A stretch of 64,000 nucleotides of DNA from Candidatus Tayloriibacteriota bacterium (GTDB taxonomy: Bacteria; Patescibacteriota; Minisyncoccia; Phycocordibacterales; PALSA-1337), in assembly GCA_016215455.1 (NCBI GenBank), contig JACRJP010000004.1, positions 155,787 to 219,786 of the forward strand. Reading direction: 5' to 3'. Below the pieces are notes generated by a model. The model worked only from the letters and a program-made list of their open reading frames with translations, made no database searches and had not been told where the DNA came from. Below are positions 10,036-31,515 of this stretch, piece after piece (the first letter of the stretch is position 1; every line of letters begins with the position of its first letter). The position numbers and the translations under genes are program-made.

Positions 10036-10827
10036 ATGGAAACACCTCCCACTCTGGCATCTCTTTTGGGTCCAATCTCCCATGAAATTTCATTTTGTAT
10101 CGTGGGTGGTCCACCAGCAGGTGGTGGATCTCTTCGAGGTGAATTGGTTGCTGGGGCCTGTCGAGACCTTCATGGAAACTTGTTGATCGGTGTCGACTTC
10201 ATCGACATCAGGCCACACATCATCGAACCTCACGTTCGTGATCAAACACCTCTTGGGCTTGAGTTTCTTGCCCACATGGCCAAACAAAAAAACGGGGGTC
10301 TTCAACCGGATACCCCTATCGCCAAAGGGCTCGCAGGCAAAATCATTGAACATCACGAAAAAGGAGTTCGACAGATTGTCTTGCGTGGATACCCACGTAA
10401 CACATTTCAGGCAGGAGAGTTGATCAGCGTTGGTGCGCCAATCAAGACGGTGTTGTTTCAACGAGATCTTGAAGAGTGCAAACGCAACTTCAACAATCCT
10501 TCTCGTCGTGCGGCAAGTCGGGATGATGACGCTGTGGTTCAACAATTGGTCGGGAGATTCGAAAACACATGGCTCAAGGAGACTCTCCCAGCACTAAGGA
10601 AACTGCGCCGGCACGCTCTTAGTCGAGATGGCTCGACTTATCACGAACGGAAAACTCCACCGACGGGACCTGATCTAGCAGCTGACATTCTGTTTCTGCT
10701 CCAACATGGACTGACAATGAGCACCGAAACACTCATTCAAATAATCGCCAATCTGGCGAATAACGAACATCCTGCTGGTCAAAAATTACGACTCTGCACG
10801 GAAGAAGATCGCCGACGGACACTATAA
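10036..10827 (+). CDS. Adenylate kinase (NMP kinase) family homolog with degenerate P-loop (GC-rich island)
   Basis: The P-loop reads IVGGPPAGGGS in place of GxPGxGKGT, so the Lys is missing. VLRGYPRNTFQAGEL matches the adenylate kinase segment LLDGFPRTxxQAxAL. RDDDAVVQQLVGRFEN resembles the LID / C-terminal region. GC is about 52%. Confidence 0.45.
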   Translation: METPPTLASLLGPISHEISFCIVGGPPAGGGSLRGELVAGACRDLHGNLLIGVDFIDIRPHIIEPHVRDQTPLGLEFLAHMAKQKNGGLQPDTPIAKGLAGKIIEHHEKGVRQIVLRGYPRNTFQAGELISVGAPIKTVLFQRDLEECKRNFNNPSRRAASRDDDAVVQQLVGRFENTWLKETLPALRKLRRHALSRDGSTYHERKTPPTGPDLAADILFLLQHGLTMSTETLIQIIANLANNEHPAGQKLRLCTEEDRRRTL

Positions 10828-14866: not shown

Positions 14867-15853
14867 CTACTCTCTCCCTTTCCAACGCATTGCAATATAT
14901 TCCTCGGCTTCACTCATACGAAATGGATTAGTTGCGTTACCTGTACGAACAAAAAATTCTTCTTTACCATCAGTACCAATGAGATATGCAGGTTTTGAAC
15001 TTGGTTCAACATCAATGATACACACCTCTTCTTCTCCTATTTTTTCAAAACGAGTATGTATCAAAGAACGGAATTTGATACCAATCATTGCCTTCACTAA
15101 AGCAGTAAAATGATTTTCGAAACTATCACGGTTTTTCTTTGGTAGTGATTCAAAATCTTCTTGAAGTCCTACGACATTACCATCATCATCAACTCCAATA
15201 ACCAATGTTCCACCATCAGCATTAAGAAAACCAATAATTGTTTTCATGATGGCACGTTCTACTTCTTTACTTACCGCTTTCTTACGAATATCCCAACGAA
15301 GAGTTTGTTTAAATTCGATACGTCCTCCTTCTCCTTGGGCAAGAAGGTCTGCAAGGGGTCGAACACGCTGCGCTGGAGTATTTCGAGTATCCACCATATG
15401 TTTGATCTGACTAACGTATTCACCAAACAATTCGACATTACGAATACGGATCTCCATATCAAAAGCGCATTCGATAATGATAGTTCCATGTCGCATTAAT
15501 CTTTCAATCAAGCTTTGTGAAATACCTACCGTCAATATCTGAGTTGCAAGTACTGATTTCTGATGACGGAGAATGAGCCCAGTCTTCCGAACAATCTCAC
15601 GTTCACGAAGTTCATAGTGTGAAAAATACCAACGAAAGAATATCGTGAGAATCAAACCAATCTGAAGTATCGAGAATATAAGGACAAGAAATATATCATA
15701 TCGAGCGAGATTTACTGGTACATACGTACGGAAAATAGCTTCATAGTTTTCAAAGTATGAAGCTATAAACAAAAAAATACTAACAAGGAGTTCAGCACCA
15801 ATAAGATTACGAACAAGGACAAGCGGCCCTTCTTTGATGATCACCCTTTTCAT
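14867..15853 (-). CDS. Membrane bPH_2 (YdbS/YdbT-like) domain fused to a Schlafen-group AlbA_2 putative DNA-binding domain
   Basis: N-terminal half: two TM helices followed by a bacterial PH-like segment (YELREREIVRKTGLILRHQKSVLATQILTVGISQSLIERLMRHGTIIIE). C-terminal half: EGGRIEFKQTLRWD...IIGFLNADGGTLVIGVDDDGNVVGL matches the AlbA_2 consensus (E-x-K ... GG-x-L-x-IGV-x-D-x-G). Confidence 0.5.
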   Translation of the reverse strand: MKRVIIKEGPLVLVRNLIGAELLVSIFLFIASYFENYEAIFRTYVPVNLARYDIFLVLIFSILQIGLILTIFFRWYFSHYELREREIVRKTGLILRHQKSVLATQILTVGISQSLIERLMRHGTIIIECAFDMEIRIRNVELFGEYVSQIKHMVDTRNTPAQRVRPLADLLAQGEGGRIEFKQTLRWDIRKKAVSKEVERAIMKTIIGFLNADGGTLVIGVDDDGNVVGLQEDFESLPKKNRDSFENHFTALVKAMIGIKFRSLIHTRFEKIGEEEVCIIDVEPSSKPAYLIGTDGKEEFFVRTGNATNPFRMSEAEEYIAMRWKGRE

Positions 15854-15880
15854 AGATACAGCTATAGTAGCATATCCGGG

Positions 15881-16666
15881 TTAGGATTTAAAAGTTATAC
15901 AAGAATCAAGGGTATAGGTACCGACCCTTGTCCGTCGAATACTATATGCAAGAGTTGGTGCCCCCACCCATTTCCCTATTTCTCCTATAAGAGCCCGCAC
16001 ATATGTCCCGCTTTGGCAGGTTATTCGAAATTTCCCAATCTGAAATACCCTATCTACCCCCAACACCCGAGTCCACTGTGTTACTATCTCTTTCTGTCGA
16101 AAATCTCCTTGTACCAAAGAAATGTACTGCGTAATACGCTGTAATAGCTGTGTCGAGGTAACTTCAGAGCTTCCCAAAAATTCTGCTGAACCAACTTCCA
16201 TCTCTCGTGACGGAATATCAATCTCACCAAGTCTATCTTCACGAGCCCACATGAAAAGTGGCTTTCCTGAAACCGGCTGAGATGAATATGCTGGATACTC
16301 AAGAAGATGTTTTCCTACTAAACGTTCGGCGCAGTGTTGATATGACCCCACTGAAATCACTTCATCATATACCCCTGTCTCTTGTGCTAGACCAAGAACA
16401 TCTCCAGTGTCAGTTGCAACTCCGAACAACACTTCAAATTCATACTCCTTATCGAGGGCTGTGTAACGATCTTTTGCCTTACATTCATCTCCTATAAGAA
16501 GCACTAAGACACCTGACGCAAGAGGATCAAGTCTCCCTGCATATGTCATTGGTACCGTTGCAGCAATACGATACTCTCGACGAACCCTCTCAAGAGCTTC
16601 AAGTGGAGTCTCACCCACCTTCTTGTCCATAACAATAACCGATGGGTATGTTTGTTCAGCATTCAT
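15881..16666 (-). CDS. truB: tRNA pseudouridine(55) synthase TruB (no PUA domain)
   Basis: YAGRLDPLASGVLVLLIG corresponds to the catalytic Asp motif GxLDPxAxG. Confidence 0.85.
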   Translation of the reverse strand: MNAEQTYPSVIVMDKKVGETPLEALERVRREYRIAATVPMTYAGRLDPLASGVLVLLIGDECKAKDRYTALDKEYEFEVLFGVATDTGDVLGLAQETGVYDEVISVGSYQHCAERLVGKHLLEYPAYSSQPVSGKPLFMWAREDRLGEIDIPSREMEVGSAEFLGSSEVTSTQLLQRITQYISLVQGDFRQKEIVTQWTRVLGVDRVFQIGKFRITCQSGTYVRALIGEIGKWVGAPTLAYSIRRTRVGTYTLDSCITFKS

Positions 16667-16721: not shown

Positions 16722-18035
16722 ATGAATTCAGACGAGTCAAAACCGATCAAAAAACTATCAACCGACAGTTATAAAGGTGTCCGTGACTTCTATCCAGAAG
16801 ACATGGCCGTACAAAACCACATCTTTGGTATTTGGAAAAATACAGTCGAGAAATATGGTTACCAAGAATATAATGCTTCGGTTCTCGAACCAGCAGATCT
16901 CTATCGGGCAAAATCAGGTGAAGAAATAGTTAATGAACAAACATACACCTTTACCGACCGTGGTGATCGTGAAGTAACACTTCGTCCTGAAATGACTCCG
17001 ACTGTAGCTCGTATGGTAGCAGCACAACGCCGAGAACGACCCTTTCCTCTCCGTTGGTATTCTATACCTAACCTTTTCCGCTATGAACAACCTCAGCGAG
17101 GACGTCTTCGTGAACACTGGCAGCTCAATGTTGATATTTTTGGTGTAACAAGTATCCAAGCAGAAGTTGAATGTATTCAAGTTGCTTATGATATTACTCG
17201 TCAATTTGGTCTCAAAGATACTGACTTTGAAGTCCGTCTTAATAATCGTAAAGTGATGAATTACGTCACTCGTGACGTATTCAAGTTGAATGATGAACAA
17301 GCTCACAAGATATCAAAACTCATTGATCGAAAAAACAAAGTTGAAGCAAAGGTTTTTGCTGACGTTGCACAAGAAATTCTTGGTGATGTAGCCGACAAAT
17401 TCCTCACACTTCTTAATTCTCAGAATTTTGAAGAATTCACTTCTCACCTTCCTCAAACTAAAGAAGAACATGAGGGACTTCGTGAAATCCGTGAAGTTAT
17501 AGCCGCTCTTGAAAAACTTGGTATTACTAATGTACGTTTTGATCAAACCCTCATGCGTGGTTTTGATTACTATACCGGCATTGTCTTTGAGATTTTCGAT
17601 AAGAATCCTACAAATCGTCGTGCGGTACTCGGAGGTGGTCGCTATGATGATCTTCTATCTCTTTTTGGAGGCGACAAAGTACCAGCAGTTGGCTTTGGAT
17701 ATGGCGACGTTGTAGCACGTGATCTTCTTGAAACATACACCTCTCTACCAAAGGACATTCGAGCAGCTGATCTCTATCTCTGTGTCATGAATGCATCACA
17801 CTTTGACTATGCACAGGATCTTGCACAAAAACTCCGCACAAAAAATATTAAAGTATCTGTTGACTATTCTGGTAGAAAAGTTGGAGATCAAATTAAAACA
17901 GCCGACCGACTCAAGATTCCATATATTATCTGCATCGGTGATCAAGAAGTTGCATCAGGAGAATTTAAAATAAAAAACCTTGTAACTGGAGAAGAAAAAT
18001 TATCAACTGAAGATACCCTAACAACTCTCAACTAG
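16722..18035 (+). CDS. hisS: Histidyl-tRNA synthetase
   Basis: Class II motifs LRPEMTPTVARM and GGGRYDDL, plus a C-terminal anticodon-binding domain. Confidence 0.92.
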   Translation: MNSDESKPIKKLSTDSYKGVRDFYPEDMAVQNHIFGIWKNTVEKYGYQEYNASVLEPADLYRAKSGEEIVNEQTYTFTDRGDREVTLRPEMTPTVARMVAAQRRERPFPLRWYSIPNLFRYEQPQRGRLREHWQLNVDIFGVTSIQAEVECIQVAYDITRQFGLKDTDFEVRLNNRKVMNYVTRDVFKLNDEQAHKISKLIDRKNKVEAKVFADVAQEILGDVADKFLTLLNSQNFEEFTSHLPQTKEEHEGLREIREVIAALEKLGITNVRFDQTLMRGFDYYTGIVFEIFDKNPTNRRAVLGGGRYDDLLSLFGGDKVPAVGFGYGDVVARDLLETYTSLPKDIRAADLYLCVMNASHFDYAQDLAQKLRTKNIKVSVDYSGRKVGDQIKTADRLKIPYIICIGDQEVASGEFKIKNLVTGEEKLSTEDTLTTLN

Positions 18036-29965: not shown

Positions 29966-30010
29966 GTAGCAATTATACAGAACTACGGAGGTTAATAAAG
30001 ACTAGCGGAC

Positions 30011-30037
30011 AAGCAATATTTGAGCTACAAAATAAAA
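30011..30037. repeat. 27-nt direct repeat copy A (AAGCAATATTTGAGCTACAAAATAAAA); copy B is at 31664-31690
   Basis: The two copies differ at a single position (G/A) and bracket the GC-rich gene at 30085-31515 together with its promoter and terminator. Confidence 0.6.
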
Positions 30038-30063
30038 GACCCGCGGCACGTCAGTGTCGCGGG
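30029..30063 (-). terminator. Rho-independent terminator of the 30085-31515 gene
   Basis: 10-bp GC-rich stem (CCCGCGGCAC / GTGTCGCGGG with one G-U) with tetraloop GTCA, followed on the minus strand by CTTTTATTTT. Confidence 0.5.
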
Positions 30064-30084
30064 CTGCTTTGTGGAAAGATTCCC

Positions 30085-31515
30085 TTAGGGTCTAACCATG
30101 CGATAGAACTTGAGGTCACTTTCCGTATCGAACTTGTAACCACGAAGACCATCCTCAGCCATGGAAAGCGTTTCGATGAGACTCCATGACTTGAGGTCAG
30201 GCGAGCCTTCGAGACGATAGGCTGTATCCGGCTGTCCCGACATGAGAATGTTCACGTAAGTGAAACCTGCGGGAGCCAGACTGATACTGACCGTCGCGGG
30301 CCACACGTAAGGATCGAGGTTCATGCCGTTAAGCGTCGCACGCGTAATGGGTCCAACAAAACCTGTTGCTGGAATTCCGTTAGCAGCTTGAAATGCTTTG
30401 ACTCCTGCTTGGGTAAGTTCACCGAAGTAAGGGCTGCCATCCACCTCATACGTCTCGAGGGAAACACCCAAGAACCGTTGCAGGATGAGCACGTCATAAC
30501 CAACACTGCCGACAGTCAGATTCGTCGCAAAAAGGAATCGTGCAAGCGACCTGACTACGATACCTTGATTGGCATTGTTGATCGTCGGCAGAAGTTGATA
30601 TCCCAACGCGTCCGTAGCTGTTCCAAAAGAACCACATTCCGCACTCAGGGTTACCCCTGTCGGGAAATTCGTTCCGAGGATACCCGTCACGATGAACTGA
30701 TGAATCCCCTTCGGAATCTTGATATCGCCATTGAAGACGACTCCGCTTGAAACCTTGTTGTCAAAGGGTATTGCATCAAAGGATCCACCGATCTGCGTGC
30801 CATTTTCGTCGGTCAGGGTAATTGATTGAGTGATAGCCCTCTCACCCCCCGACAAATTGAACGCGACAGAAAAATACGGAATTGTGACATCCGTGCCCTC
30901 CACGGTTACCGTAAACTTGGCAAGCACAACAGGATTTGTGCTTCCTTGCACCGATGTAGGCGCAGTGGTATTTTGAATGTCGAGCTTTCCTACAACGACG
31001 TTGGTATCGATCGTGTAGAAATTTCCACGAATCGGGAACGGAGTTGCAAATGTGACCCGATCAGACAACTCAGTGAAATATCCATCAGCCGCAGCTCCGA
31101 CGACTTCGAGTCCAACATTTTGCCCTTGGAAGAGCGTGAGATCGGAAGCGAATTGGGCGGAGATGACTACGGTATTGGTCTCACCCTGCGTGAGAAATAT
31201 CGGGCCCACGAGTATGGGAGAGTGAGGAAGAAATCCAAAAGGACCTCGACTTATCTCCTTCAGGTCACTTCCGACATAAATGCCGGTCATAGGATTTCCA
31301 TTCCATAGTGAGTTTCCCATTGGTTGCACTGCAAGATACAGCGGCGGAGGGAACTTTTTGTCGCTCTCAGTCACGAGGACCGTGAGCATGGGCACAATAG
31401 CCCCCTGGGCAGCCGACATAAGTGGTGGTTGATTGGTCGTCTCCAGGATGGAGAACGTGGTGGCATAGACACGGAGGAAGCTCACAAGAGCCAGGACCAA
31501 CAATGAGATCTTCAT
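30085..31515 (-). CDS. Secreted protein with C-terminal peptidoglycan-binding (PG_binding_1-like) domain (GC-rich island)
   Basis: Start at MKISLLVLALVSFLRVYA (signal peptide). The segment VGYDVLILQRFLGVSLETYEVDGSPYFGELTQAGVKAFQAANGIPATGFVGPITRATL matches the PG_binding_1 consensus. Confidence 0.5.
   Translation of the reverse strand: MKISLLVLALVSFLRVYATTFSILETTNQPPLMSAAQGAIVPMLTVLVTESDKKFPPPLYLAVQPMGNSLWNGNPMTGIYVGSDLKEISRGPFGFLPHSPILVGPIFLTQGETNTVVISAQFASDLTLFQGQNVGLEVVGAAADGYFTELSDRVTFATPFPIRGNFYTIDTNVVVGKLDIQNTTAPTSVQGSTNPVVLAKFTVTVEGTDVTIPYFSVAFNLSGGERAITQSITLTDENGTQIGGSFDAIPFDNKVSSGVVFNGDIKIPKGIHQFIVTGILGTNFPTGVTLSAECGSFGTATDALGYQLLPTINNANQGIVVRSLARFLFATNLTVGSVGYDVLILQRFLGVSLETYEVDGSPYFGELTQAGVKAFQAANGIPATGFVGPITRATLNGMNLDPYVWPATVSISLAPAGFTYVNILMSGQPDTAYRLEGSPDLKSWSLIETLSMAEDGLRGYKFDTESDLKFYRMVRP

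Follow-up and report, generated by a model that had tools for sequence, protein, structure and literature searches.

Bacterial Schlafens were established as anti-phage tRNases only recently (2025-2026), and all Schlafen-type nucleases characterised to date act, to our knowledge, on tRNA, namely on its acceptor stem, anticodon arm or T-loop. SLFN11 has Ex4ExK as its catalytic motif, and the variant Ex4(E/D)xK is conserved in the 5,930 prokaryotic Schlafens (pSlfns) of a recent survey, about 62% of which are fused to HisKinase and/or helix-turn-helix (HTH) domains and 69.6% of which lie within 10 kb of a defence gene (PMC13056530). The CRISPR-associated Schlafen CbCash depends on E17, D22, K24 and Mg2+ for tRNA cutting and cleaves immediately 5' of U55 in the T-loop (PMC13462974), and the toxicity of Avs9 needs the site E14/D19/D45/E65 (PMC12680541). 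DUF304 (identical to PF03703) proteins are predicted (Phobius) to be transmembrane (TM) proteins whose PHb domain is intracellular; PHb domains assemble as C5 and C12 rings (PMC2817789). Here, we describe a gene from a 64,000-nucleotide stretch of Candidatus Tayloriibacteriota contig JACRJP010000004.1 (the window), whose product combines two TM helices and a DUF304-type bPH_2 domain with a C-terminal Schlafen/AlbA_2 domain. The gene, in the following called the bPH-SLFN gene, is a fixed chromosomal gene under strong purifying selection and not a mobile island gene, and its product is probably an RNase held at the membrane.

Domain architecture, active site and topology

The membrane-tethered fusion of bPH_2 and AlbA_2, which the original prediction had read from the window, is confirmed by Pfam matches above the cut-offs, hydropathy, AlphaFold and Foldseek. 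In Pfam, SLFN_AlbA_2 (PF04326) covers residues 175-310 (E=2.3e-19, 70.5 bits, gathering cut-off 25.3), the alignment spanning profile positions 1-116 of 118, and bPH_2 (PF03703) covers residues 75-144 (E=5.4e-8, 33.4 bits, gathering cut-off 22); NCBIfam gave no match for the protein. The AlphaFold model, which was generated from the family alignment, has a mean predicted local distance difference test score (pLDDT) of 84.4 and a predicted TM-score (pTM) of 0.58. It contains helices (residues 10-32, 36-44 and 52-77), a beta-sandwich over residues 79-141 with helix 143-155 as its cap, and an alpha/beta domain formed by residues 167-325; the linker 156-166 is without predicted secondary structure, the block pLDDT being 71-72 over residues 151-170. 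A Foldseek search of the PDB with the C-terminal half found DIP2311 (3lmm, 5.6e-6), the AlbA_2 domain of hSAMD9 with DNA (7ksp, 2.4e-5), SLFN13 (5yd0, 7.5e-5) and the tRNase domain of rSAMD9 (9o0d, 7.9e-5), as well as SLFN14, SLFN11 and SLFN5, so that this domain has the Schlafen-core fold. With residues ~78-155, the bacterial PH domain 3dcx (1e-2, probability 1.0) and eukaryotic PH folds were found. Both folds were thus recovered independently, in agreement with the Pfam domain calls. The protein is identical to one annotated in a metagenome-assembled genome of 'Candidatus Taylorbacteria', which the NCBI taxonomy places in the Parcubacteria group of Patescibacteria, and three other sequencing runs, assembled independently, gave the same protein and the same gene order. 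Because the locus recurs in these further assemblies, an assembly artefact is ruled out.

A single-sequence PDB search gave E-values above 0.08 only, and the family profile was needed to compare the active site with known structures. In the profile alignment, GE175GGRIE180FK182 is matched with ES..VEFK of SLFN14 and SLFN13, and IGVDD223 with FGVDD of SLFN13; E175, E180 and D223 correspond to E205, E210 and D248 of rat SLFN13 (note that the counting of 5yd0_A is offset by +13 from the native SLFN13 numbering). The Ex4ExK motif accordingly reads E175-x4-E180-F-K182. Among 231 distinct full-length homologues, E175 and K182 are present in all 231, E180 and D243 in 230 each, and D223 in 229. The spacings of the Avs9 site (+5 and +20) equal those between E175 and E180 and between D223 and D243, and D243, matched to E65 of Avs9 by spacing only, may be the fourth acidic active-site residue. 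Further conserved basic or polar residues of the SLFN domain are R186, D188, R190, K204, N211, G214-G215, E246-N247-H248, R303 and G305-N306. The Schlafen active site is thus intact, and the pattern of conservation is that of an enzyme. One AlbA_2 domain can suffice as a tRNase, as illustrated by the rSAMD9 tRNase domain 9o0d, one of the best fold matches. The C-terminal domain is therefore best described as a probable metal-dependent RNase, the substrate of which is likely tRNA.

This assignment bears on the wording 'putative DNA-binding', which was used in the original prediction and is also found in databases. The AlbA_2 identity held up; as Ex4ExK and the two aspartates are essentially invariant, the label is probably too weak, and the site points to an RNase rather than to a mere binder. 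For the same reason it is quite unlikely that the protein is a non-catalytic tether, whose AlbA_2 domain would bind DNA or RNA and anchor it to the membrane, for example transformation DNA or the nucleoid; the four acidic residues and the lysine are kept throughout the 231 sequences, and nuclease-dead SLFNs characteristically lose these positions. Such a tether would be in line with the database names 'putative DNA binding domain-containing protein' and 'RNA-binding domain-containing protein' (a third label is 'membrane protein YdbS with pleckstrin-like domain'), with the crystallisation of SAMD9 AlbA_2 together with DNA and with the lack of nuclease activity in some mammalian SLFNs (PMC13462974). 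Type IV pilus genes (T2SSE/F) also recur a few genes away, but these belong to the general synteny and do not adjoin the bPH-SLFN gene.

The Kyte-Doolittle profile has maxima centred on residues 18-26 and 54-68, indicating two hydrophobic helices; in combination with the AlphaFold model, TM1 was located at about 17-35, an outside loop at 36-52 and TM2 at about 53-77. Near the N-terminus, K7-E-G-P10 is conserved and a strand is predicted for residues 4-7. In the 231 distinct homologues, the first 16 residues contain 3.5 lysines plus arginines on average, the loop 36-52 contains 1.5 and the 23-residue stretch following TM2 contains 6.2. According to the positive-inside rule, this bias predicts an N-in/C-in orientation with both soluble domains, bPH and SLFN, facing the cytoplasm, which agrees with the placement of the PH domain predicted for DUF304 proteins in PMC2817789. 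The protein had been described as envelope-associated; the membrane anchor bears this out, and a position of the two domains outside the cytoplasm is at odds with the charge bias. Within the predicted bilayer, polar residues occur at two positions, E21 being present in 213 and Q64 in 202 of the 231 homologues. In addition, W75 of TM2 is conserved at no less than 97%, and N36-Y37-E38 of the outside loop is kept in at least 90% of 38 aligned sequences.

A variant of about 245 residues (P0154, P0156, P0180) has the same TM hairpin, with glutamate and glutamine kept, joined straight to the SLFN domain without bPH. One of these genes (P0154, L091:2102-2839) sits among the housekeeping genes for L28, an M50 protease, adenylate kinase and Ddl, and its start overlaps an uncharacterised 133-residue gene by 4 nt. 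This small gene was considered as a split-off bPH domain and rejected, the hhalign probability being 0.3%.

Genomic neighbourhood and inheritance

A family search gave 221 proteins; among the 120 listed, all carry both Pfam domains in about 308-341 residues, and, apart from the three closest, they have 47-54% identity to the window's protein. An exhaustive search of representatives at 50% identity yielded about 70 full-length clusters. In a GTDB scan with one genome per species, 232 species had a relative and 80 loci were fetched. Neighbouring genes were clustered without reference to the window, and the counts of upstream genes given below are from 76 loci including the window. A 48%-identical homologue is surrounded by the genes for an RNase_H-like exonuclease, HisRS, (GIY-YIG), TruB and TypA in the order found in the window. 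The gene truB lies immediately upstream on the same strand in 25/76 loci with gaps of -4 to 70 nt, three of these being overlaps of 4 nt; pth (peptidyl-tRNA hydrolase) takes this place in 7/76 loci (gaps 25-66 nt), a divergent HisRS gene in 8/76 and RpoC in 1/76. A convergent typA is found one to four genes downstream in 36 of the 68 loci clustered. Further recurrent neighbours are DsbA, T2SSE/F, ABC-F, RpoB/C, Ddl and signal peptidase. Thus, in dozens of species, the gene sits between hisS and typA, directly after truB or pth, and in the window truB is its probable co-transcribed partner.

Inheritance was assessed by comparing divergence patterns. Mantel correlations between the bPH-SLFN protein and its neighbours were r=0.82 for TruB, 0.69 for the RNase_H-like exonuclease and 0.52 for TypA (p=0.0005 each). 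For HisRS the value was r=0.19; because the control comparison of TypA with HisRS was equally weak (r=0.08), HisRS is uninformative and not contradictory. Within the same genomes, the mean pairwise identity was 0.61 for the bPH-SLFN protein, 0.52 for TruB and 0.51 for HisRS. Its N-terminal half has an identity of 0.55 and its C-terminal half one of 0.64, and both halves co-vary (r=0.84). In a neighbour-joining (NJ) tree of 28 TruBs linked to the gene and 42 unlinked ones, linkage required 4 Fitch steps compared to 22 on average and at least 15 after shuffling, and 25 of the 28 linked TruBs have a linked nearest neighbour. The TruBs of the carriers group together as a single coherent clade. Most simply, one or a few acquisitions took place at the truB/typA junction within a Parcubacteria/Paceibacteria sub-clade, after which the gene was passed on vertically and rarely lost.

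The location next to TruB and Pth raises the question of whether the protein is a constitutive housekeeping RNase or tRNA-surveillance factor, which would serve tRNA maturation, quality control or turnover and have no immune role. The operon-like place behind truB or pth and near hisS and typA, the co-divergence with TruB, which is the strongest among the partners tested, and a conservation exceeding that of TruB and HisRS all favour it. A surveillance link is suggested by the fact that the CbCash cut adjoins U55 (PMC13462974), the base that TruB converts to pseudouridine, and 30.4% of pSlfns are not defence-associated and may be non-immune (PMC13056530). On the other hand, the upstream partner varies: in other sub-clades, the place of truB is taken by pth, rpoC or hisS, which weakens the link to TruB and speaks against a specific partnership. 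When loci were sampled via TruB, only 1 of 68 evaluable metagenomic loci had the gene downstream of truB; in L154 and L156-L158, HisRS, TruB and TypA are kept with an empty slot where it would lie. Most Patescibacteria with the hisS-truB-typA synteny are thus without the gene, which is not generally required. Moreover, the characterised prokaryotic Schlafens are all tightly regulated toxic effectors. Taken together, we regard a constitutive housekeeping function as unlikely. The idea of a universally conserved, pan-Patescibacteria core gene was rejected after the same TruB-anchored sampling.

The original prediction had also stated that AlbA_2 domains are mostly domains of soluble proteins and show enrichment close to defence genes, which the survey figures of PMC13056530 bear out, and had seen in the gene a defence-related sensor or effector. 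The comparison of neighbourhoods revealed instead the conserved housekeeping locus described above, which the prediction itself had named as a finding that would speak against it. The genes within 10 kb on either side in the window encode YibE/F, T2SSF, TypA, TruB, HisRS, the exonuclease, UppP, ZIP, AhpC, DsbA, an AddA-like helicase and SulP; no known defence gene was found in this range beyond generic PADLOC matches to GajB, and a GajA partner is absent. Among 108 variable flanking genes from 75 loci, no PADLOC family has more than two members, and specific defence families occur in two genes, both reverse transcriptases; the Pfam families of these flanking genes are ordinary metabolic and housekeeping ones. 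IMG/VR phage contigs contain no full-length relative. By the defence-island and mobility tests used for bacterial AlbA_2 proteins, the gene is neither an island gene nor mobile.

Other relatives of the SLFN domain do have such associations. In the exhaustive search, 1,534 representatives were found at E<=1e-30, many of which match only residues ~160-324 with 180-210 bits. Their N-terminal partners include HsdR (P0190), TIR (P0205), GmrSD (P0222), GmrSD plus HNH (P0245), a trypsin-like protease (P0235), an ORC/CDC6-like ATPase (P0252) and a solute-binding domain (P0219), and some relatives of 172-189 residues are without any N-terminal partner. The SLFN domain studied here is 38-49% identical to these differently fused relatives. 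Because P0190 lies in an hsdM-hsdS-hsdR operon and P0235 adjoins a Trypco1 gene, this SLFN subtype serves genuine conflict systems elsewhere. Of the 149 closest representatives, 95 (~64%) are membrane-anchored (56 with two TM helices and bPH, 22 with a TM hairpin only, 17 with other TM segments), and Ex4[ED]xK is present in 147. An NJ tree of these 149 SLFN domains neither supported nor rejected monophyly of the bPH-fused class.

These fusions are one argument for a mobile defence-island gene, that is an envelope-associated nucleic-acid sensor or effector travelling with anti-phage systems; others are the defence association of bacterial Schlafen/AlbA_2 proteins, several of which protect against phage (PMC13056530, PMC13462974, PMC12680541), one marginal PADLOC match to the Schlafen region of pAgo (E=0.0031) and the foreign GC-rich gene that adjoins the bPH-SLFN gene. 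We nevertheless consider such an origin highly improbable: the position is conserved over dozens of species, the gene co-diverges with its neighbours and its presence is clade-coherent, the flanking genes and phage contigs gave the results listed above, and the soluble domains are predicted to be cytoplasmic and not to face the envelope.

Table 1. Location of the bPH-SLFN gene, its domains and the neighbouring features in the window.
Feature	Position	Strand	Basis or remark
Whole gene: membrane-anchored bPH_2 + Schlafen/AlbA_2 protein	14867..15853	-	ATG-to-stop open reading frame, 328 residues
Short N-terminus, TM1, outside loop and TM2 (residues 1-77)	15623..15853	-	hydropathy, AlphaFold
bPH_2/DUF304-type PH domain with C-terminal helix 143-155 (residues 78-155)	15389..15622	-	Pfam, AlphaFold, Foldseek
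Linker between bPH and SLFN (residues 156-166)	15356..15388	-	lower pLDDT, low conservation
Schlafen/AlbA_2 nuclease-type domain (residues 167-328)	14870..15355	-	Pfam, Foldseek, family profile
Spacer between truB and the bPH-SLFN gene, 27 nt	15854..15880	-	no promoter-like or terminator-like site called
truB (tRNA pseudouridine-55 synthase)	15881..16666	-	PF01509, E=1.1e-22
TIM-barrel, xylose-isomerase-like (AP_endonuc_2) gene, 284 residues	13950..14804	+	PF01261, 30.1 bits, under the cut-off of 31.1
hisS	16722-18035	+	exonuclease gene begins 4 nt after
RNase_H_2/DnaQ-like 3'-5' exonuclease, 193 residues	18040-18621	+	PF13482, E=5e-15
UvrD helicase with C-terminal PD-(D/E)xK nuclease (AddA-like), 1023 residues	21443-24514	-	many generic PADLOC matches to GajB

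The features are compiled in Table 1. The convergence with a GC-rich island gene, also noted originally, was reproduced: the TIM-barrel gene has a GC content of 0.480 and a GC content at third codon positions (GC3) of 0.481, compared to GC3 values of 0.26-0.32 in TypA, TruB, HisRS and the bPH-SLFN gene. It is compositionally foreign and belongs to the context, not to the system of the bPH-SLFN gene; in the slot between this gene and typA, it was found only in the window and in L013, whose homologue is 35% identical. Many relatives have different singleton genes in this slot, which suggests an insertion hot spot. In one case (L001:6365-7306, P0059 locus), the bPH-SLFN gene is surrounded, between hisS and typA, by a RhuM-family gene and several genes without annotation, pointing to local gene flux around a stable anchor. 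In two others (L018:7218-8483 and L031:7142-8407), a reverse transcriptase of 421 residues (RVT_1) follows immediately downstream; it matches PADLOC RT/DRT models with E-values down to 3.8e-53 and could be a group II intron or a defence-associated reverse transcriptase.

The TruB of the window is short: it has 261 residues (213-300 in relatives), and Pfam detects only the catalytic TruB_N domain and no PUA/C-terminal domain. The adjacency of hisS and the exonuclease gene is kept in about 25 of 68 related loci, which suggests a conserved HisRS-exonuclease operon in Parcubacteria. The AddA-like helicase belongs to the conserved synteny, with further copies in the P0089 and P0059 loci, one of these copies having an N-terminal match to the PemK_toxin domain. 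On account of this conservation, it is probably an enzyme of recombination or repair and not a Gabija component. Elsewhere in the window, the gene at 10036-10827 (+) has a GC content of 0.496, no Pfam match and counterparts in 5 related loci, and the segment ~30001-31000 has a GC content of 0.506. In the whole 64-kb window, ARAGORN found no tRNA or tmRNA gene and Rfam no family at the gathering threshold; such a lack of RNA genes is unusual for a small genome.

Proposed mechanism and role

Our molecular account starts from what the preceding sections demonstrate, namely the domain architecture and fold, the intact active site, the syntenic vertical status of the gene and the conflict-system relatives of the module. 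We propose a membrane-anchored, oligomerisation-gated Schlafen tRNase and, guided by analogy to related enzymes, assign to this account a probability of about 0.5. The two-helix hairpin would span the membrane such that both its ends are cytoplasmic; the bPH domain would lie directly beneath the membrane, and the linker of about ten residues would carry the SLFN/AlbA_2 domain. The latter is predicted, by homology with SLFN11/13/14, SAMD9, CbCash, RorSlfn5 and Avs9, to be a Mg2+/Mn2+-dependent endoribonuclease that cuts tRNA (possibly rRNA) and causes translation arrest. The nuclease is probably latent and switched on by a change of oligomeric state, as suggested by the dimerisation of SLFN11, the transition of the CbCash dodecamer to a filament and the oligomerisation of RorSlfn5. 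Because Schlafens clamp RNA with at least two domains and PHb domains form rings, the TM hairpin and the ring-forming bPH domain may act as an oligomerisation platform, which would gate the nuclease on a membrane or envelope cue. Candidate sensing elements are E21 and Q64 in the bilayer and N36-Y37-E38 in the outside loop. The resulting role would be a regulated translation shut-off, either as a domesticated antiviral effector of the abortive-infection type or as a brake on growth under stress.

Several points weigh against this proposal. The motif Ex4(E/D)xK is near-universal in prokaryotic AlbA_2 domains, HTH-fused ones included, and is for this reason necessary but no proof of nuclease activity. 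The gating role of the TM/bPH module is purely inferred, and the relative orientation of the domains is uncertain in a model with a pTM of 0.58. The lack of defence neighbours and the strict vertical descent are atypical for immune effectors, and a sequence cannot separate a defence role from a stress role. Finally, the adjacency to truB or pth may reflect a mere permissive insertion site, as variable genes collect between the bPH-SLFN gene and typA.

In a bolder variant, which is rather unlikely, the role of the protein would be non-immune and lineage-fixed, a first among prokaryotic Schlafens: it would be a membrane tRNase that assists the T-loop enzyme TruB, or Pth, in surveying tRNA or arresting growth, and its ring of TM hairpins and bPH domains would sense the state of the membrane. 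If this were true, a conflict-system effector would have been domesticated into the core physiology of ultra-small symbiotic bacteria, and Parcubacteria would have a membrane-associated centre of RNA decay.

Comparison with known systems

None of the papers listed for Patescibacteria/Candidate Phyla Radiation (CPR)/Parcubacteria names Schlafens, and searches for bPH together with Schlafen and for bPH_2/PF03703 returned unrelated papers only. RefSeq complete genomes largely miss CPR/Patescibacteria. It is this collection on which at least the surveys of PMC13056530 and PMC12680541 drew. The main texts of these two papers and of PMC13462974 do not mention a membrane-anchored or PH-fused Schlafen class.

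The closest described proteins are pSlfn1-55, among them the fusions of RorSlfn5 with an Ig-like domain and of EcoSlfn7 with DUF262 (Perez Taboada et al., Nat Microbiol 2026, PMC13056530). With these, the bPH-SLFN protein shares PF04326, Ex4(E/D)xK and the layout of a variable partner and a Slfn effector in a single polypeptide; DUF262/GmrSD-Slfn fusions occur among pSlfn1-55 as well as among the relatives of the subtype studied here (P0222, P0245). It differs in that its partner consists of a TM hairpin and bPH_2, the Slfn domain forms the C-terminal part, nearby defence genes are absent and the gene is passed on vertically within a Parcubacteria clade instead of being patchily distributed. 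Cash (Csx15-Slfn; Weickert et al., Nat Commun 2026, PMC13462974) likewise has a single-lobe Slfn with an E-x4-(D/E)-x-K centre, and the dependence of its activity on a change of oligomeric state is the basis for the oligomerisation-gated tRNA cleavage that we propose. In contrast to Cash, the bPH-SLFN protein is membrane-anchored; Pfam detects no Csx15/CARF-like sensor in it, and the window and the neighbourhoods of the loci contain no cas genes and no type III CRISPR neighbourhood.

SLFN11/13/14, SAMD9/9L and Avs9 (PMC12680541) have the same fold (Foldseek probability 1.0) with aligned catalytic acids, and in SAMD9 and Avs9 a single AlbA_2 domain is an active, toxic nuclease. The identity to these proteins is only 15-19%, however, and the bPH-SLFN protein is prokaryotic and membrane-tethered and is without a second lobe, a helicase or STAND modules. 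With the YdbS/YdbT-type membrane proteins (DUF304; Xu et al. 2010, PMC2817789; DdE/DdF, PMC8657885), our protein shares the PF03703 match and, as in YdbS, two TM helices with one predicted cytoplasmic PHb domain directly behind them. Compared to these, it adds the C-terminal nuclease-type domain and is not associated with bacteriocin export or sigma-W stress genes; a second bPH_2 (ydbT-like) gene was found neither among the neighbours in the window nor in the recurrent neighbour clusters. RNase Y and RNase E offer an analogy, since in them, too, an N-terminal anchor keeps a ribonuclease domain at the cytoplasmic membrane face, as predicted for our protein, but their catalytic folds (HD/KH and S1/DNase I-like, respectively) are unrelated, and both are near-universal within their phyla, whereas the bPH-SLFN gene is restricted to one clade.

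The relevance of the family is threefold. It adds a membrane-anchored Schlafen architecture with a bPH partner; it breaks the defence-island rule, being clade-fixed and syntenic with translation genes, and constitutes a concrete case for the ~30% of pSlfns that are possibly non-immune; and it provides a candidate for a regulated RNase in organisms about whose RNA metabolism and stress or immune responses very little is known. Furthermore, the database label 'putative DNA-binding', which is probably wrong, can be corrected. In practical terms, the family is of moderate value; its protein is small, the soluble domain should express easily, and the active-site mutants are obvious.

By sequence, motif and fold, the protein belongs to the Schlafen/AlbA_2 superfamily and, at the same time, to the bPH_2/YdbS-like proteins. 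It is not a member of Cash, Avs9, SLFN-pAgo or the YdbS/YdbT pairs. A Schlafen with yet another partner domain is within expectation; new, in comparison to all of these systems, are the membrane/bPH architecture and the non-island, clade-fixed status of the gene.

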